Shown: piece after piece, positions 5,977 through 13,153 of the stretch
Position numbering within the stretch: the first letter of the stretch is position 1
Layout: each line of letters opens with the position of its first letter
Translations under genes and position numbers: made by a program
Assembly: GCA_038450185.1 (NCBI GenBank)
Contig: GCA_038450185.1_4765.1
Reading direction: 5' to 3' (one strand)
Source of the DNA: a phage
DNA length: 64,000 nucleotides
The notes under the pieces: generated by a model
The model's database searches: none
Seen by the model: the letters and a program-made list of their open reading frames with translations, nothing else
What the model was told of the DNA's origin: nothing

Positions 5977-6016
5977 TGTTTGATTCTCCTAAGTGGTATC
6001 TCGTCTTGATGGTTGT

Positions 6017-6045
6017 ATTGTAGGGGAGTTATCCTCCCCTGTCAA
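6017..6045 (-). promoter_or_regulatory. sigma70-type early promoter, TTGACA-17-TACAAT
   Basis: Spacer GGGGAGGATAACTCCCC is an imperfect palindrome. Confidence 0.5.
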
Positions 6046-6059
6046 CACTTTTTATAAAA

Positions 6060-6227
6060 TTATTTGTTAATTTCTGGTGCGTTGCTCGGATAGTAACCTT
6101 CTTTAACACCCAGATATTTTGCAACCATCCCTACAATCTTCTGTGCTACTACAATGTCAAATTTCAGATAATCTTCGCCGTGGGTTTCAATGATATATGC
6201 TTCACATGCTGCTTTAGTCTCGAACAT
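6060..6227 (-). CDS. hypothetical small protein (55 aa), paralog of 9803..9970
   Basis: C-terminus HGEDYLKFDIVVAQKIVGMVAKYLGVKEGYYPSNAPEINK nearly identical to the second copy; track start is upstream of the promoter. Confidence 0.55.
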   Translation of the reverse strand: MFETKAACEAYIIETHGEDYLKFDIVVAQKIVGMVAKYLGVKEGYYPSNAPEINK

Positions 6228-6260
6228 TTTGATTCTCCTATTTCGTTTCGTTATGTGTGT

Positions 6261-6290
6261 ATTATAGGGGATCGGTGATCCCCTTGTCAA
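6261..6290 (-). promoter_or_regulatory. sigma70-type early promoter, TTGACA / TATAAT
   Basis: Spacer palindrome GGGGATCGGTGATCCCC. Confidence 0.55.
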
Positions 6291-6305
6291 CAACTTTTTT
6301 TAAAA

Positions 6306-6587
6306 TTATTCGTGATTAGTTTCGATGTTGTGCATTTTGCACCAGTTCAGCCAGTCGCCCAGATCTTGATAGTTGATGCTTTTATCTGCTGCCATCGTTT
6401 TTGTCTTGATACCCATATGTGCGTTATGAGTAAGCATTTTTACAGTGAACTCGATTTTATCGCCTTTAGCTTTAACATCAACCAGTTTGGTCCACTGGCT
6501 ACCAGCGCCGCGAATGTTCATACCAACGATGTTTCCGATGTATGCTTCTTTGTTTTTCAGGATTTCGGTTGCTTTGATGAATTTCAT
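6306..6587 (-). CDS. hypothetical early protein (93 aa)
   Basis: ORF behind its own promoter. Confidence 0.5.
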   Translation of the reverse strand: MKFIKATEILKNKEAYIGNIVGMNIRGAGSQWTKLVDVKAKGDKIEFTVKMLTHNAHMGIKTKTMAADKSINYQDLGDWLNWCKMHNIETNHE

Positions 6588-6620
6588 TTTTGGTTCTCCA
6601 GTTCGTTTCGGTATGGGTGT

Positions 6621-6649
6621 ATTATGCTATGTTCTTACTTTGGTGTCAA
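6621..6649 (-). promoter_or_regulatory. sigma70-type early promoter, TTGACA-17-CATAAT
   Basis: -35 and -10 hexamers on the minus strand. Confidence 0.5.
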
Positions 6650-6657
6650 CAACTTTT

Positions 6658-6927
6658 TTAGATATTTTCAGAAATAAATTTTAAAACTTGACGTAAATGT
6701 TTCTCATCTTTGATAGTCGCCGGAAGTTCTTCTTTTACTTCCTGTGCAAGATAGATATTTCCGTTCCAAGTGAAAGATCCGTCTTCGTTTACGCGATAGC
6801 TGAACATCCACTCGCAATCATTTTCGATTTCATATACACACAGAAGGGTGTAATCGTTAAAGCTAGTGATTTCAAGGTCGAAGCCGTGACGTTTTGCAAA
6901 GTTGGTAGTGGTTTTAGTCAGAGCCAT
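6658..6927 (-). CDS. hypothetical early protein (89 aa)
   Basis: ORF behind its own promoter. Confidence 0.5.
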   Translation of the reverse strand: MALTKTTTNFAKRHGFDLEITSFNDYTLLCVYEIENDCEWMFSYRVNEDGSFTWNGNIYLAQEVKEELPATIKDEKHLRQVLKFISENI

Positions 6928-6967
6928 TGTTTGATTCTCCTAAGTGGTATCTCGTTTCGATGTGTGT

Positions 6968-6996
6968 ATTATGCTATAGGCCGGATCTGGTGTCAA
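6968..6996 (-). promoter_or_regulatory. sigma70-type early promoter, TTGACA-17-CATAAT
   Basis: -35 and -10 hexamers on the minus strand. Confidence 0.5.
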
Positions 6997-7002
6997 TGCC
7001 TT

Positions 7003-7030
7003 TTTTAAAAAAGCCGACACTAAGGTCGGC
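7003..7030 (-). terminator. hairpin terminator
   Basis: GCCGAC-loop-GTCGGC followed by T-run on the minus strand. Confidence 0.5.
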
Positions 7031-7423: not shown

Positions 7424-7455
7424 CTTTATTTCCTCAATCTCGTTTCGATGGGTGT

Positions 7456-7484
7456 ATTATGCTATAGTCGTGATCTGGTGTCAA
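7456..7484 (-). promoter_or_regulatory. sigma70-type early promoter, TTGACA-17-CATAAT
   Basis: -35 and -10 hexamers on the minus strand. Confidence 0.5.
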
Positions 7485-7504
7485 TGCCTTTTTTAAAATT
7501 TTAT

Positions 7505-7536
7505 GCAATAAAAAAGCCGACACTAAGGTCGGCTAA
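7505..7536 (-). terminator. hairpin terminator
   Basis: GCCGAC-CTTAGTGT-GTCGGC followed by a T6 run on the minus strand. Confidence 0.5.
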
Positions 7537-7541
7537 TGAAA

Positions 7542-7847
7542 TCATTTAGACAAATAATCATTCTGTGCAATCCGGTCAGCATGTTCCGGCGTTACGTCAA
7601 TTGCAATCACTTTAACGCGCGCTTTCTTGACTGAATTTTCTCGTAGCCAGTGCGTGTGACCGTGCACATTTTTATACTTTGATGCTTTTTCGAAAGTACG
7701 GATCGGACCTGGGTAATCAGCGTAAAGGATCTCTAGGTCTTCTGTGATGTAAAAATATACATCATAATTACTGTTCTCTAGTTTAAGCAGAGACTTTCGG
7801 AACATTGGGAGATTTTCGCGGGTAAATTCAAAGATATTATCTTTCAT
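7542..7847 (-). CDS. small protein, HxHW paralog family member (101 aa)
   Basis: C-terminal HGHTHWL...VIAIDV motif shared with five nearby ORFs; trimmed to internal ATG. Confidence 0.55.
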   Translation of the reverse strand: MKDNIFEFTRENLPMFRKSLLKLENSNYDVYFYITEDLEILYADYPGPIRTFEKASKYKNVHGHTHWLRENSVKKARVKVIAIDVTPEHADRIAQNDYLSK

Positions 7848-7861
7848 AGTATTATCCTCAA

Positions 7862-7888
7862 TAGTTGGATGAAAAGGGGGCTTAACGC
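7862..7888 (-). terminator. intergenic hairpin (terminator or processing site)
   Basis: GGGGGCTTAACGCCCC stem-loop. Confidence 0.4.
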
Positions 7889-7896
7889 CCCGTATA

Positions 7897-8184
7897 TTAA
7901 AACAGTCCTTCCTGTACACCGTAGTAGAGTTCATCGCTGATAATTTCATTAATGCGACGGTGTGCATATTCCTGATTTGCGAAGTTGTCAGCAAGTTCTA
8001 CTTTAGTTTCGCCGTCATGAGTCCATTTAGTGATAACTTTACCATCTGCAAATTTGAAGTTGAACTCTTTAGCTACTGCATCGCGTACCAGACGTGCAAA
8101 CTTATTGTTGCGGATTGCATTGTCGGTTTCGTGTGCAGCGTGAGCGAATTTGTTAACTTTCAGGGTGATAGTAATGTATGCCAT
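7897..8184 (-). CDS. hypothetical early protein (95 aa)
   Basis: ORF behind its own promoter. Confidence 0.5.
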   Translation of the reverse strand: MAYITITLKVNKFAHAAHETDNAIRNNKFARLVRDAVAKEFNFKFADGKVITKWTHDGETKVELADNFANQEYAHRRINEIISDELYYGVQEGLF

Positions 8185-8230
8185 AATTTGATTCTCCTAG
8201 TTAGAAAGTGTATCTCGTTTCGATGGGTGT

Positions 8231-8259
8231 ATTATGCTATACACCCAACCTCATGTCAA
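8231..8259 (-). promoter_or_regulatory. sigma70-type early promoter, TTGACA-17-CATAAT
   Basis: -35 and -10 hexamers on the minus strand. Confidence 0.5.
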
Positions 8260-8265
8260 CACTTT

Positions 8266-8544
8266 TTATAAAATAATTTTTTGATATTTTTCTATGATGT
8301 TCGTGTAATTCACATCAACCGCTAGCACCGTTGCTTCGAATCCACCGTTTAGCCAATGGCTATGATCGTGATCGTGAAAGAAACCTAGACCAGTACGAAG
8401 ACCTTCTTTATATTCGGCGCGTACATTTAGATCATCATCGATAAACAGATAAAACCATGAATTTTTACTAGGATTGATGATACAACCTTTCAGATTCGGG
8501 AGAATATCACGACTAAGAATAAACTTATCACCTACTTTGAACAT
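8266..8544 (-). CDS. small protein, HxHW paralog family member (92 aa)
   Basis: HDHSHWL...VLAVDV motif; trimmed to internal ATG. Confidence 0.55.
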   Translation of the reverse strand: MFKVGDKFILSRDILPNLKGCIINPSKNSWFYLFIDDDLNVRAEYKEGLRTGLGFFHDHDHSHWLNGGFEATVLAVDVNYTNIIEKYQKIIL

Positions 8545-8558
8545 AATATTTTCCTCAC

Positions 8559-8867
8559 TTATAAAGTTTGACCGTTGTTTTTCGCGTAATGCTGAATGCG
8601 TGCTTGATCTGCTTCCGATGGTGATAGATTCCATGCAACCACTACAACTTCTGAAGCATCGTCATCCGTTTCTGATACCCAATGATTGTGATTCATACAG
8701 TTATTTGCTATCGAGTGAGCAAATGATTTCATCACTGGAGACGTATAATCATAGTAACGGATTTTCAGATTTTCATCAACATACAAGTAGATCGTATACG
8801 GCTTATATTCAGTAACCAATAACAGACAGTTACGCAATTCTGGGAAAATCTTTTTAGTTAATTTCAT
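8559..8867 (-). CDS. small protein, HxHW paralog family member (102 aa)
   Basis: YLYVDENL...NHNHWV...VVVVAW motif pattern. Confidence 0.5.
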   Translation of the reverse strand: MKLTKKIFPELRNCLLLVTEYKPYTIYLYVDENLKIRYYDYTSPVMKSFAHSIANNCMNHNHWVSETDDDASEVVVVAWNLSPSEADQARIQHYAKNNGQTL

Positions 8868-9069
8868 ATTCTAGTTCTCCGTAATACACGGTAATCCATT
8901 TTTCTTCATACTTTGTATCTTTCCAGCACACAATCCCGTTTACTGTGCAATCTTTGGAATTGACGAATGATTCATATTGTTCTGCATCTTCCATCATTTC
9001 ATGAGCGGTCTTTTCATCGAATATATCGCAGATCGCTTTATATGCTCGATAATCTTTAAATTTGCTCAT
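8854..9069 (-). CDS. hypothetical small protein, tandem paralog A
   Basis: MSKFKDYRAY...MMEDA...GIVCWKDT shared with 9072..9281. Confidence 0.5.
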   Translation of the reverse strand: MSKFKDYRAYKAICDIFDEKTAHEMMEDAEQYESFVNSKDCTVNGIVCWKDTKYEEKWITVYYGELEYEIN

Positions 9070-9071
9070 AA

Positions 9072-9281
9072 TTAACACCACTCAAGAGTTTTTGAAAACA
9101 CATCTATCCATTGTTGAGTATATGCGGTTTCTTTCCATGACACAATACCAGTCGAATAATGGTTTTTGTTTCCAGAAAAGGACGGGCATTTTGATGCATC
9201 TTCCATCATCTTTTCGGCGAACTCTGGTGCGTATACTCGCAGGATCTGTTGATATGCTTTATAGTCTTTAAATTTGCTCAT
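9072..9281 (-). CDS. hypothetical small protein, tandem paralog B
   Basis: MSKFKDYKAY...MMEDA...GIVSWKET shared with 8854..9069. Confidence 0.5.
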   Translation of the reverse strand: MSKFKDYKAYQQILRVYAPEFAEKMMEDASKCPSFSGNKNHYSTGIVSWKETAYTQQWIDVFSKTLEWC

Positions 9282-9546
9282 AATCGTTAACTACCTTATC
9301 AGCTTCTTTTATTGTTTTTACATCAACTGCGATAATCCGTAAAGGTTCGTCGAAGGTCCACCAATGATCGTGAATATCAGCTTGTGATTTATCACCAAAG
9401 GAATCACGAATATCATTTTTACATTTATAGCTAATGTGACCGTCATAGTCAACATAAAGGTAATTATCGAAAATCGGCGTTTTTAAGATCATACCGAAAA
9501 ATCTTTCTTTGTGTGTCTTATCCAGTGTTGCAGTAATTCGCATCAT
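9268..9546 (-). CDS. small protein, HxHW paralog family member (92 aa)
   Basis: YLYVDYDG...HDHWW...IIAVDV motif. Confidence 0.55.
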   Translation of the reverse strand: MMRITATLDKTHKERFFGMILKTPIFDNYLYVDYDGHISYKCKNDIRDSFGDKSQADIHDHWWTFDEPLRIIAVDVKTIKEADKVVNDYEQI

Positions 9547-9558
9547 AATATATTCCTC

Positions 9559-9738
9559 TTAGAAAGGGATGGTCATTTCTTGAGCTTGTACATTCTCGTT
9601 AGGATTAAACTTCATCCAACCGATATTGTCTACCAGCATATGTACATTTTTATCATATCCTACGTGAGTAGTCAACACTAAATGTGCTTTACCTTCAACG
9701 ATGATTTCCATGTACTTCTGAACTTCGATAGCTTTCAT
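9559..9738 (-). CDS. hypothetical small protein (about 59 aa, below track cutoff)
   Basis: ATG-initiated ORF MKAIEVQKYMEII... behind a TTGACA -35 at about 9794. Confidence 0.4.
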   Translation of the reverse strand: MKAIEVQKYMEIIVEGKAHLVLTTHVGYDKNVHMLVDNIGWMKFNPNENVQAQEMTIPF

Positions 9739-9802
9739 TTTGATTCTCCGTTTGTTGTCTTGATGGGAGTATATTACTACTCCCTTTAATCATTGTCAAC
9801 TA

Positions 9803-9970
9803 TTATTTGTTAATTTCCGGTGCGTTGCTCGGATAGTAACCTTCTTTAACACCCAGATATTTCGCAACCATTCCGGTGATCTTCTGTGCTACTACGATAT
9901 CGAATTTCAGGTAGTCTTCACCGTGGTTTGCTACAATGTATGCTTCGCATTCTGCTTTAGTCTGGAACAT
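9803..9970 (-). CDS. hypothetical small protein (55 aa), paralog of 6060..6227
   Basis: About 90% nucleotide identity to 6060..6227 by eye; same promoter type. Confidence 0.55.
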   Translation of the reverse strand: MFQTKAECEAYIVANHGEDYLKFDIVVAQKITGMVAKYLGVKEGYYPSNAPEINK

Positions 9971-10003
9971 TTTTGATTCTCCTATATCTCGTTGGTATGT
10001 GTG

Positions 10004-10033
10004 CATTATAGGGGATCACCGATCCCCTGTCAA
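10004..10033 (-). promoter_or_regulatory. sigma70-type early promoter with GGGGATC..GATCCCC spacer
   Basis: Near-identical to promoter at 3885..3913. Confidence 0.55.
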
Positions 10034-10041
10034 CAACTTTT

Positions 10042-10344
10042 TTATTCTTCGTCTTTATCTTTATATGCGTATTTCATAAATTTGTCTGCTACTTCATCGG
10101 CATGTTCCGATTCTACGTCGGATTCGAGAACAATAGCAAGATCGGTTTCGTCGTTTCCGTCATACCAATGATTATGAGTATCGTTTTCTTCGATATAGAA
10201 TGAGTCATTTGGAGTTGGACGACAATATACATCTAAATTCTCATCGATGTAAAAGATCCAATCTTCGTAAAGAATAACCGTATTAGCCAGATTTTTATTG
10301 CCTTCAACGAAAGGTTCAGCTACAAATAGCTTAGTTTGTTCCAT
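10042..10344 (-). CDS. small protein, HxHW paralog family member (100 aa)
   Basis: IFYIDENL...THNHWY...LAIVLESDV motif; trimmed to internal ATG. Confidence 0.5.
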   Translation of the reverse strand: MEQTKLFVAEPFVEGNKNLANTVILYEDWIFYIDENLDVYCRPTPNDSFYIEENDTHNHWYDGNDETDLAIVLESDVESEHADEVADKFMKYAYKDKDEE

Positions 10345-10360
10345 AATATTTTCCTCAAAA

Positions 10361-10552
10361 TTATACAGCTTCGTAAACTTCCCAATGTTCAGCGCCAGCA
10401 CGCTTAACGAAAAGGTTTTCTTTGATGTTATTCATAAACGTCTGGATGGATTTAATGCGGTTGGAAGGTTTCCAGTCTTCGTTAGCATTTCGGCGATACA
10501 TTATAACATTACCAGATCGCTTATATTCAGCAACCATTTTAAGACCACACAT
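10361..10552 (-). CDS. hypothetical small protein (63 aa)
   Basis: ATG-initiated ORF in the array. Confidence 0.4.
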   Translation of the reverse strand: MCGLKMVAEYKRSGNVIMYRRNANEDWKPSNRIKSIQTFMNNIKENLFVKRAGAEHWEVYEAV

Positions 10553-10608
10553 AATATTATCCTCAATTTGTGGGAGAGTATTACCCTCCAGATTATTGTT
10601 ATACTACA

Positions 10609-10911
10609 TTACGCAAAATGGCGTGTCAATGCTTCTTTTGCTGTTCCGCTAAGATTCTCGATCTCTCCTGGCATAACATCAACCGCCAGAACTTCTACAA
10701 CATCCTCTGATCCTAACCAGTGAGTATGACCTTTGTAGAACTTGATATCCCATTTATCGCTATCGCTAGCCCACCACACATCACCGTCGATAAAGTTGAT
10801 GTAAAGCACACTACGACACATTGAATTAATTACTTTCAATACTGCGCCTTTCATATCTTCCACGGTATGGTCTTCCATTTTGAAGACCTCACCTACCTGA
10901 ACTTTTGCCAT
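10609..10911 (-). CDS. small protein, HxHW paralog family member (100 aa)
   Basis: LYINFIDGDV...KGHTHWL...VLAVDV motif. Confidence 0.55.
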   Translation of the reverse strand: MAKVQVGEVFKMEDHTVEDMKGAVLKVINSMCRSVLYINFIDGDVWWASDSDKWDIKFYKGHTHWLGSEDVVEVLAVDVMPGEIENLSGTAKEALTRHFA

Positions 10912-10928: not shown

Positions 10929-11108
10929 TTACATAACAATCACGCCAGCCGTTGAAAGTTGATGTTTCAACTGAGCATTTTCTGCTACTGTCAAATCAAT
11001 GATTTCTTGTGACGCTGCAATCATATAGCCATTGGTGATATTGTTTTTCATCAGTTCAATGGTTTCTTCGTTGTAGCGGATTTTAGCGATGATTTCGTTG
11101 AAGTTCAT
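10929..11108 (-). CDS. hypothetical small protein (59 aa from internal ATG)
   Basis: Track ORF start lies upstream of the promoter; trimmed. Confidence 0.4.
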   Translation of the reverse strand: MNFNEIIAKIRYNEETIELMKNNITNGYMIAASQEIIDLTVAENAQLKHQLSTAGVIVM

Positions 11109-11142
11109 AATTGATTCTCCTAGTTCGTTTCGGTATGTGTGT

Positions 11143-11171
11143 AGTATAGGGGATCGGTGATCCCCTGTCAA
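11143..11171 (-). promoter_or_regulatory. sigma70-type early promoter with GGGGATCGGTGATCCCC spacer
   Basis: -35 TTGACA, -10 TATACT. Confidence 0.5.
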
Positions 11172-11184
11172 CAACTTTTTTGAA

Positions 11185-11661
11185 TTATTTTTCTTTATGC
11201 TCGCGCTCATACTTTTCGAAATAAAATTCTACTGGCTGGTCGTGGATTGACAGTAAGCCAAAGCGTTTAGCCGCTCGCAATCCCATATTGCGCTGAATGT
11301 ACTTCTGGAAGTTCTCGCGTATACACTTACGCCAGTATTCTAAGCCCATACAGCTTTTATAAAGATTGCATTGCACACATGCCGGATTCATGTTATCAAG
11401 TATATCATGCTCCGGTTTATGCATTCCTACAACCTTATACTTCCACGATCCATCATCATTACGGGCAATTCGTCCATTTTCATCATAGACTACCTTTGAG
11501 CGTCGCAATACTGGTTTGATGTGGTCTGCGTGCCAGCGATCCCCTAGTTCCTCGCCACAATAGGCACAACGTCCACCATATTTCATTTTCAGGATCTGGC
11601 GTTGCTCTTTCTTTGACAATTTTTTAGGTTTAGGGGCTTTCGCCCCTTCATTATCACACAT
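11185..11661 (-). CDS. HNH endonuclease
   Basis: CAYCGEEL...WHADHIKP HNH motif plus C-terminal CVQCN; overlaps the ligase 3' end by 8 nt. Confidence 0.55.
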   Translation of the reverse strand: MCDNEGAKAPKPKKLSKKEQRQILKMKYGGRCAYCGEELGDRWHADHIKPVLRRSKVVYDENGRIARNDDGSWKYKVVGMHKPEHDILDNMNPACVQCNLYKSCMGLEYWRKCIRENFQKYIQRNMGLRAAKRFGLLSIHDQPVEFYFEKYEREHKEK

Positions 11662-13153
11662 CGAATACCTCTTTTACTGTATTTGCAGTGGTCTTGTCGT
11701 AGCGAATACGTTTGATGATCGGGAGAAATAAAGAGAACTCCGGTTCATCTTCTTTACGTGATTTGCTGCGGATATACCCGTTGCATGTCATCTCAATGAC
11801 TTTTCCAATCAGGTTATGACGGTCAGCCCATAACATTTCTCGGTCAAGTTCATTTCTACGATCGAACGGAATCACACGTTCAATACCATCATCTTTTTCG
11901 GTTGTAGTGTCGGTCAATCCCGATCCGGTGTTGGTCATCATTCGTCCGCACGCACTACGGACAGTAAAACCGCCTACCTTATTAGGATCTTTACTATGCG
12001 GATATACATCAACAATTTCCGCGTCGAAGTCAATCACTTCTTTAAATTTAACCTGATCTTTACTGCGACGATCTTCAAATACACCATGCAGATTTTTAAG
12101 GATAATACCTTCTAATCCCATGTTTACATATCGATGATATACTTCGCGAGCTTCATCGATATTGTTAACTACAGTATTTTCGATTATCTGCACACGAGGA
12201 TCGTTAAGTTCTTCAACAATCTGTTTTAGTTCTTCGAATCGATCTTTATATTGCTTCGTTGCTTTCTCGTTTCCGTAATACACATCACGGTTGATAACAT
12301 CCCAGACAGTGTAAACAATACATTGGGCTTCTTCTTTTGGAATAGTTCCTTTCAGTGATTTGTTGAGGATACCATTTCCGGTCTGACGATCTGCAACAAC
12401 GGATTCTTTTACTGCTTCCGCTACTGGCGTTAATGGCATTTCCTCTTCTTCAAATATCCATGACAGAGTACCATCATAAACGCTTTCAACGAAGTTCTGC
12501 GCTGGTGTTTGCGAAAGGGTAGGCATATATACCAATTCGCCATCTAGAACAATTCCACGGCCTCGTAGACGCTCTAAAACAGCAAACAAATCATCCAGCC
12601 CCTGATAGGTATTACCTGAACGGGTATATATTGCTAGTGTTTCCCCGTCAATATCAGCCATACCACGAGCGCCATCACTTTTAAGTTGTGCATATGCCGG
12701 ATATTTGATATTAGCAATAGCCTTATCAGAATATGACGATGCAAGGTGGCATGGTTGCTGTGGGATCAGTTTCTTCCATACCTTGTTTGCAGTGGTAGCG
12801 GAACAACCGCATTCCAGATCACGATTCAGGACCATCATTGCAACTTTAGCATCATCTTCTGACAAGCAAGTCAGAGTATCGGTAACTAGTTGTAATGCAG
12901 CATTACCAGTTACTTGACGCGTGGCAAGTTTATTTTTAAAGACCTGTAATGCACCGGATAAAGACAATACAGACGAATAACGCGATGGTTTATCGTATTT
13001 CTTTACGCCAAACGTAACCTGTTTGCAATATGCCAGATAAAAGCATTCTTTCAGCGTTTCATTGCTTGCAGATTCTTTCAGGATCTTTTCTTTCAGCGAT
13101 GTTTTGTCTGTCGCTGCAAGCTGATTAATGATATTAAGAATTGACATTTTCAC
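11654..13153 (-). CDS. 30: ATP-dependent DNA ligase
   Basis: 499 aa; adenylation motif KSDGAR; position and size match T4 gp30. Confidence 0.85.
   Translation of the reverse strand: MKMSILNIINQLAATDKTSLKEKILKESASNETLKECFYLAYCKQVTFGVKKYDKPSRYSSVLSLSGALQVFKNKLATRQVTGNAALQLVTDTLTCLSEDDAKVAMMVLNRDLECGCSATTANKVWKKLIPQQPCHLASSYSDKAIANIKYPAYAQLKSDGARGMADIDGETLAIYTRSGNTYQGLDDLFAVLERLRGRGIVLDGELVYMPTLSQTPAQNFVESVYDGTLSWIFEEEEMPLTPVAEAVKESVVADRQTGNGILNKSLKGTIPKEEAQCIVYTVWDVINRDVYYGNEKATKQYKDRFEELKQIVEELNDPRVQIIENTVVNNIDEAREVYHRYVNMGLEGIILKNLHGVFEDRRSKDQVKFKEVIDFDAEIVDVYPHSKDPNKVGGFTVRSACGRMMTNTGSGLTDTTTEKDDGIERVIPFDRRNELDREMLWADRHNLIGKVIEMTCNGYIRSKSRKEDEPEFSLFLPIIKRIRYDKTTANTVKEVFDV

Follow-up and report, generated by a model that had tools for sequence, protein, structure and literature searches.

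Six small paralogous proteins with an H-x-H-W motif in the alt-to-gene 30 hyperplastic region of an RB49-like phage

The hyperplastic regions of T4-type genomes form the principal reservoir of uncharacterised phage accessory genes, and genes of this kind have yielded several anti-defence proteins. The closest described counterparts of the locus examined here are the small ORFan cassettes of the RB49 and phi1 hyperplastic regions, which are flanked by promoter-early stem-loop (PeSL) elements (Arbiol et al. 2010, PMC2839356; 2014 follow-up, PMC4122927). A stretch of phage DNA of 64,000 nucleotides (contig GCA_038450185.1_4765.1, hereafter the window) is 92-96% identical to Krischvirus phages, which are RB49-like T4-type myoviruses (JK32, Brandy, and RB49). 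It carries six small genes, P1 to P6, in the hyperplastic region between alt and gene 30 (DNA ligase, window positions 11654-13153). The locus comes from the same phage group as the described cassettes and holds the same kind of small ORFans, and its variable region between core genes has repeated promoter/stem-loop cassettes, which places it among the PeSL-associated ORFans of T4-type hyperplastic regions. It differs from PeSL-flanked single-gene cassettes in that most P genes are preceded by at least one other gene in a multi-gene unit. PMC2839356 does not use the word paralog and leaves ORF197-206 unnamed, and a literature search on the RB49 locus tags, or on Krischvirus together with anti-defence, found nothing. 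The P family appears to be undescribed as a unit, and to belong to a familiar kind of feature, the ORFan families of these regions.

The genes are named in order of rising coordinate and are transcribed from P6 to P1. Coordinates include the stop codons, and the six RB49 orthologs are all annotated as hypothetical.

7542..7847, minus strand: P1, 101 amino acids (aa), HGHTHWL, RB49p197 ortholog, phrog_9345
8266..8544, minus strand: P2, 92 aa, HDHSHWL, RB49p199 ortholog, phrog_17255
8559..8867, minus strand: P3, 102 aa, NHNHWV, RB49p200 ortholog, phrog_9345
9268..9546, minus strand: P4, 92 aa, IHDHWW, RB49p203 ortholog, phrog_15972
10042..10344, minus strand: P5, 100 aa, THNHWY, RB49p206 ortholog, phrog_15965
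10609..10911, minus strand: P6, 100 aa, KGHTHWL, RB49p208 ortholog, phrog_16486

These open reading frames (ORFs) form one true paralogous family. Because pairwise identity among them is only 20-31%, homology was tested formally by leaving out each copy in turn and running a hidden Markov model (HMM) built from the other five against all 632 stop-to-stop ORFs of the window. Apart from the training sequences, the top match was always the omitted copy (E = 1e-13 to 1e-5), with the following ORF at about 0.07-0.5. The H-x-H-W tetrad occurs in exactly these six of the 632 ORFs, where composition predicts 0.57 occurrences, and cross-matches among PHROG profiles connect five of the six proteins. A preliminary description made from the letters alone had reported an array of six ORFs of 92-102 aa with three common motifs. 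The ORFs are indeed present on the minus strand at exactly the coordinates listed above, and a multiple alignment puts the Y-L-Y-I-D-x-(D/N)-L hairpin, the H-x-H-W element, and the V-L-A-x-(D/N)-V segment each in shared columns, as equivalent positions require. The word array does not hold in the strict tandem sense, since only P3 and P2 are adjacent and the rest are split by unrelated small ORFs. A profile search of the window found no seventh copy. One candidate for a truncated copy, a 63-aa ORF at 10361-10552 that has a 27-nt repeat in common with P3 and 'EHW' near its end, proved unsupported (0.9 bits).

Only the second His and the Trp of the motif are strictly invariant across the wider family. 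The H-x-H pair is shared by every copy in the window and by at least 90% of the family, with T, S, N, D, or E as its middle residue and a single H-x-H-W per protein of about 95 aa. The His pair that the preliminary description emphasized is thus real in the window, but its first His is replaceable elsewhere: P0084 and P0086 have Ser at this place and P0088 has Asp, and these three are otherwise intact members. The family alignment has no invariant Asp, Glu, Cys, or His column besides the motif, and some members carry Thr, Asn, or Gly in place of the strand Asp residues. Hydrophobic segments are absent from all members, and the grand average of hydropathy is negative. Isoelectric points (pI) span 4.1-7.9 across members, so charge is not a common property; five of the six P proteins are acidic or near-neutral. 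P5 is very acidic (pI 4.07, net charge about -20, 27 Asp+Glu versus 7 Lys+Arg). Its acidic tail is unlike its paralogs, and its charge is within the range of DNA-mimic anti-restriction proteins. The ATG of every one of the six genes follows a strong Shine-Dalgarno sequence (GAGG or GGAG) at a distance of 6-9 nt.

Orthologs of the P copies from seven genomes have ratios of nonsynonymous to synonymous substitution (dN/dS) of 0.08-0.20, except for P4, where saturation of dS precludes an estimate, and the flanking genes give similar values. The orthologs are therefore under purifying selection, and the diversifying pressure proposed in the preliminary description does not survive. Within ortholog groups the strands and the HW residues are fixed, and changes, both substitutions and indels, are concentrated in the loop ahead of H-x-H-W (beta4-to-HxHW), in the residues just after it, at the N-terminus, and in the C-terminal helix. 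Divergence of the P4 and P5 alleles exceeds that of the flanking sequence, a pattern in keeping with the mosaic exchange that hyperplastic regions typically undergo. P1 is frameshift-truncated at or just before H-x-H-W in JSE (P0085) and kvi (P0054) and is therefore dispensable in some lineages, like accessory genes. P6 orthologs (for example P0059-P0068) differ in the loop ahead of H-x-H-W by an insertion of 6-10 aa ('EEGSLV'-type); the window has the short allele, and RB49 and JK32 have the long one.

The family is restricted in its distribution. Among 5.8 billion proteins, a word-indexed search found 86 matches, all at least 72% identical to one of P1-P6, and this level of identity marks them as orthologs on Krischvirus-like contigs. 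When 1.84 billion cluster representatives were searched exhaustively with the profile, only 22 clusters reached E <= 0.001. Two of these, the large proteins P0097 (1034 aa, MAM-like repeats) and P0101 (1440 aa, an OmpA-type repeat protein), were judged spurious as members, their scores being summed weak matches to repeated beta-hairpins. All seven sampled Krischvirus genomes have exactly six members in identical order, and none were found in the 10-60 kb interval of RB49, which limits the copies to the stretch between alt and gene 30. An HMM scan of 129 kb of T4, including all early regions, found no homolog (best E = 0.28). The T4 counterpart of the alt-to-gene 30 interval holds alt.1 only, which makes the P family a lineage-specific add-on. 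In an uncultured T4-like relative (L003), two members occupy the equivalent place between the ligase gene and alt. Four consecutive genes on a 2.1-kb contig (L005) encode five domains, two of them fused in a single protein (P0087). The copy number thus varies among T4-like phages, with six in Krischvirus, zero in the T4 early regions, and two to five domains in uncultured relatives. At 35-65% identity, the distant members can be assigned to P3-, P4-, P5-, or P6-like subfamilies, and this sorting implies that the duplications predate the split of these phages and that each copy was kept separately. The old duplications proposed earlier are borne out by it.

A second fusion involves the genes beside P3. 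The distant metagenomic contig L014 has one 260-aa ORF (318-1100) in which two phrog_8471 domains and a P3-like domain are joined in frame. Its fusion partners are the same three genes that are adjacent in the window, P3 and the two directly upstream of it:

9072-9281, minus strand: first of two tandem 'MSKFKDY...' paralogs (phrog_8471, unknown function)
8854-9081, minus strand: second 'MSKFKDY...' paralog; the P3 start overlaps the end of this gene by 14 nt

AlphaFold2 models of P1 (predicted local distance difference test 83, predicted template modeling score 0.79) and P2 (86 and 0.81) have a common topology, beta-alpha-beta-beta-beta-alpha-alpha-beta-alpha, in one compact alpha/beta domain. 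The predicted fold is confident and reproducible across these two independent models. In both, H-x-H-W lies on the short second-to-last helix, and the flanking loops are the most variable parts. Profile searches leave the family without a match to any known protein family or solved fold. Pfam and NCBIfam gave no match, and PDB sequences gave Spindlin only (E = 1-2, not significant). Full-length matches to PHROG profiles were obtained for P1-P6 (E = 2e-45 to 9e-64), all to families of unknown function, in agreement with the earlier statement that no named family could be recognized. PHROGs keeps P1-P6 and their orthologs in five separate families (9345, 17255, 15972, 15965, and 16486), which are merged here into one superfamily with a common predicted fold and an invariant His-Trp.

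A viral structure library yielded only Krischvirus paralogs and a few uncharacterised proteins. Comparison with known structures gave the following pairs of values:

Tas1 immunity protein (6ox6_B): 3.7 and 4.4
Cif: 4.3 and 4.3
AcrIIA7: 3.2 and 4.2
mS34: 3.4 and 4.1
ModTad2: 3.0 and 3.8

The first of these is Tis1, which confers immunity to the type VI effector Tas1 and is one of the nearest known counterparts. AcrIIA7 and Tad2 both belong to DUF2829 (PF11195), and Tad2 is an anti-Thoeris sponge. Solved DUF2829 chains and a 30-member alignment of that family have an N-terminal helix followed by G-W-N-G-K and a C-terminal D-x-L-A-E-D-W, both of which are absent from the P family. At the level of sequence profiles, membership in DUF2829 was rejected: none of 20 members matched PF11195 at E <= 10, and hhalign of the family against the 30-member alignment gave 0.06% probability over five aligned columns. 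Two enzyme classes were also set aside. The 2H phosphoesterases (Acb1-like) have two H-x-T/S-x motifs in a domain of about 150-200 aa, whereas the P proteins have a single H-x-H-W in about 95 aa and no Pfam match. The HNH (beta-beta-alpha-Me) nucleases spread His, Asn, and His over about 20-30 residues, whereas HNHW is contiguous in a short helix of the models and again lacks a Pfam match.

Near-consensus TTGACA-17-TATAAT promoters are numerous on the coding strand, and the P genes occupy second or later positions in their transcription units, which are delimited as follows.

11143..11171, minus strand: PeSL early sigma-70-type promoter with a GGGGATC...GATCCCC stem-loop in its spacer, heading orf59-P6-orf63-P5
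9771..9799, minus strand: promoter-like site, TTGACA-17-TAATAT, heading orf59-P4-orf69-orf70-P3-P2
8231..8259, minus strand: PeSL-type early promoter, TTGACA-17-CATAAT, heading orf95-P1, then a terminator
7515..7534, minus strand: terminator-like hairpin with a T-run, directly after P1 and belonging to a perfect 25-nt repeat with a second copy at 7006-7030
5998-6059, 6602-6663, 6949-7010, 7437-7498, 8212-8273, and 9986-10047: six copies of a 62-nt cassette with a near-consensus sigma-70 promoter
6229-6316, 9973-10060, and 11111-11198: three copies of an 88-nt cassette with a near-consensus sigma-70 promoter

Some of the cassette copies carry the GGGGATC/GATCCCC stem-loop between their -35 and -10 boxes. 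These cassettes correspond to the PeSL elements of the RB49/phi1 hyperplastic regions.

The homology, conservation, purifying selection, early-promoter context, reproducible predicted fold, and absence of a known relative are established. The functional reading that we tentatively prefer is that the P proteins are early binder proteins built on one scaffold, with separate targets, that assist host takeover or counter-defence. On this view the family is a lineage-restricted set of orphans, soluble cytoplasmic proteins of about 95 aa whose early expression would be driven by the sigma-70-type PeSL promoters. Two invariant residues are too few for a catalytic centre, and the proteins may instead act as non-enzymatic, stoichiometric binders and serve as accessory factors. 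A common scaffold would present a conserved His/Trp contact patch, and each of the six old subfamilies would keep its own target. The natural fusions (P0087 and L014) hint at dimers or complexes, and the proteins would probably act as dimers or with partner small proteins, perhaps the phrog_8471 products.

Several points weigh against this reading. Purifying selection is the opposite of the arms-race signature that is often seen in anti-defence genes. The genes neighboring P1-P6 are all of unknown function, and the fusions sit on metagenomic contigs of 1-2 kb and are possibly assembly artefacts. The early timing of expression is predicted from promoter consensus.

A more specific proposal is that a previously undescribed fold provides a modular counter-defence kit, in which six inhibitors would each act against a different E. 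coli immunity or restriction system, some of them together with phrog_8471. We consider this unlikely. Such a kit would help a phage without the hydroxymethylcytosine and glucosylation genes at the T4 position, and the order of genes from uvsX to gene 43 in RB49 is of this kind. In RB49 (L017, 10000-59999) a single small ORF separates uvsX from the downstream gene 43, whereas T4 (L011, 1-50000) has beta-gt and gene 42 between them. The lack of these two genes there is consistent with unmodified cytosine DNA across the genus.

It is quite unlikely that the family consists of immune-signal sponges like Tad2, Tad1, and Acb2, which as oligomers would sequester the nucleotide second messengers of CBASS, Thoeris, or Pycsar. 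The Trp would then stack on a base, the His residues would contact phosphate, and the paralogs would be tuned to different signals. We regard as similarly improbable a family of SH3-like beta-barrels (KOW/Tudor-like) that mimic or bind host factors by docking on the machinery of transcription or translation, in the manner of many T4 early proteins. The strand order of small barrels of this type may be similar, and there are also one source label and weak matches for them. No match in sequence or structure reached significance, and there is no KOW, Tudor, or SH3 match in Pfam. Unlike the KOW and Tudor barrels, the P family has extra helices and the H-x-H-W insertion. The acidic or near-neutral character of five of the six proteins also makes direct nucleic-acid binding unlikely.

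There is little probability that the proteins are metalloproteins or small enzymes in which His-x-His, maybe doubled across a dimer interface, binds Zn, Ni, or Fe. The near-universal H-x-H speaks for such proteins, but otherwise intact members replace its first His, and no other invariant column offers a possible Asp, Glu, Cys, or His ligand. Neither Pfam nor PDB gave a metalloprotein match, and the motif is neither the H-x-T/S pair of 2H proteins nor a spaced HNH. The metal part of the earlier suggestion that the His pair binds a metal or ligand is weakened by these substitutions; the preliminary interpretation as a whole is partly supported. Finally, functionless cargo, meaning ORFans carried and duplicated by PeSL-mediated recombination with no selected protein function, would suit a hyperplastic region rich in the PeSL repeats by which ORFans are known to be shuffled, as well as the P1 frameshifts in JSE and kvi, but it is very hard to reconcile with dN/dS of 0.08-0.20, six copies in the same order in seven of seven genomes, subfamilies recognizable in distant relatives, and a confident fold common to two independent models.

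The P proteins are good candidates for experimental screening rather than a surprise in themselves. Old selected paralogs that combine a His-Trp patch with variable loops and occur in natural fusions are a tractable target in the search for a new inhibitor class or small fold. If the proteins prove inert, then five PHROG families of unknown function will still have merged into one, and the diversifying-selection and metal-site readings will have been corrected.

A perfect 25-nt repeat, TAAAAAAGCCGACACTAAGGTCGGC, occurs at 7006-7030 and 7509-7533 and forms two identical terminator-like minus-strand hairpins 503 nt apart, each adjoining a PeSL. A third duplicated gene encodes a 55-aa 'MF(E/Q)TKA(A/E)CEAYI...' protein (phrog_8009) at 6059-6230 and 9802-9973 (minus strand) within a 172-nt direct repeat of 87% identity. 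Both of its copies are preceded by the same 88-nt PeSL promoter cassette, an arrangement that suggests a cassette duplication by PeSL recombination. An HNH endonuclease gene at 11185-11661 (minus strand) shares 8 nt with the end of the DNA ligase gene and marks the core/hyperplastic boundary. In RB49 the genes p210 and p211 lie between this endonuclease gene and the array (L001 7285-8046), and they are absent from the window (about 11108-11185) and from JK32. ORFan210 is the cassette that was shown to form PeSL mini-circles (PMC2839356).

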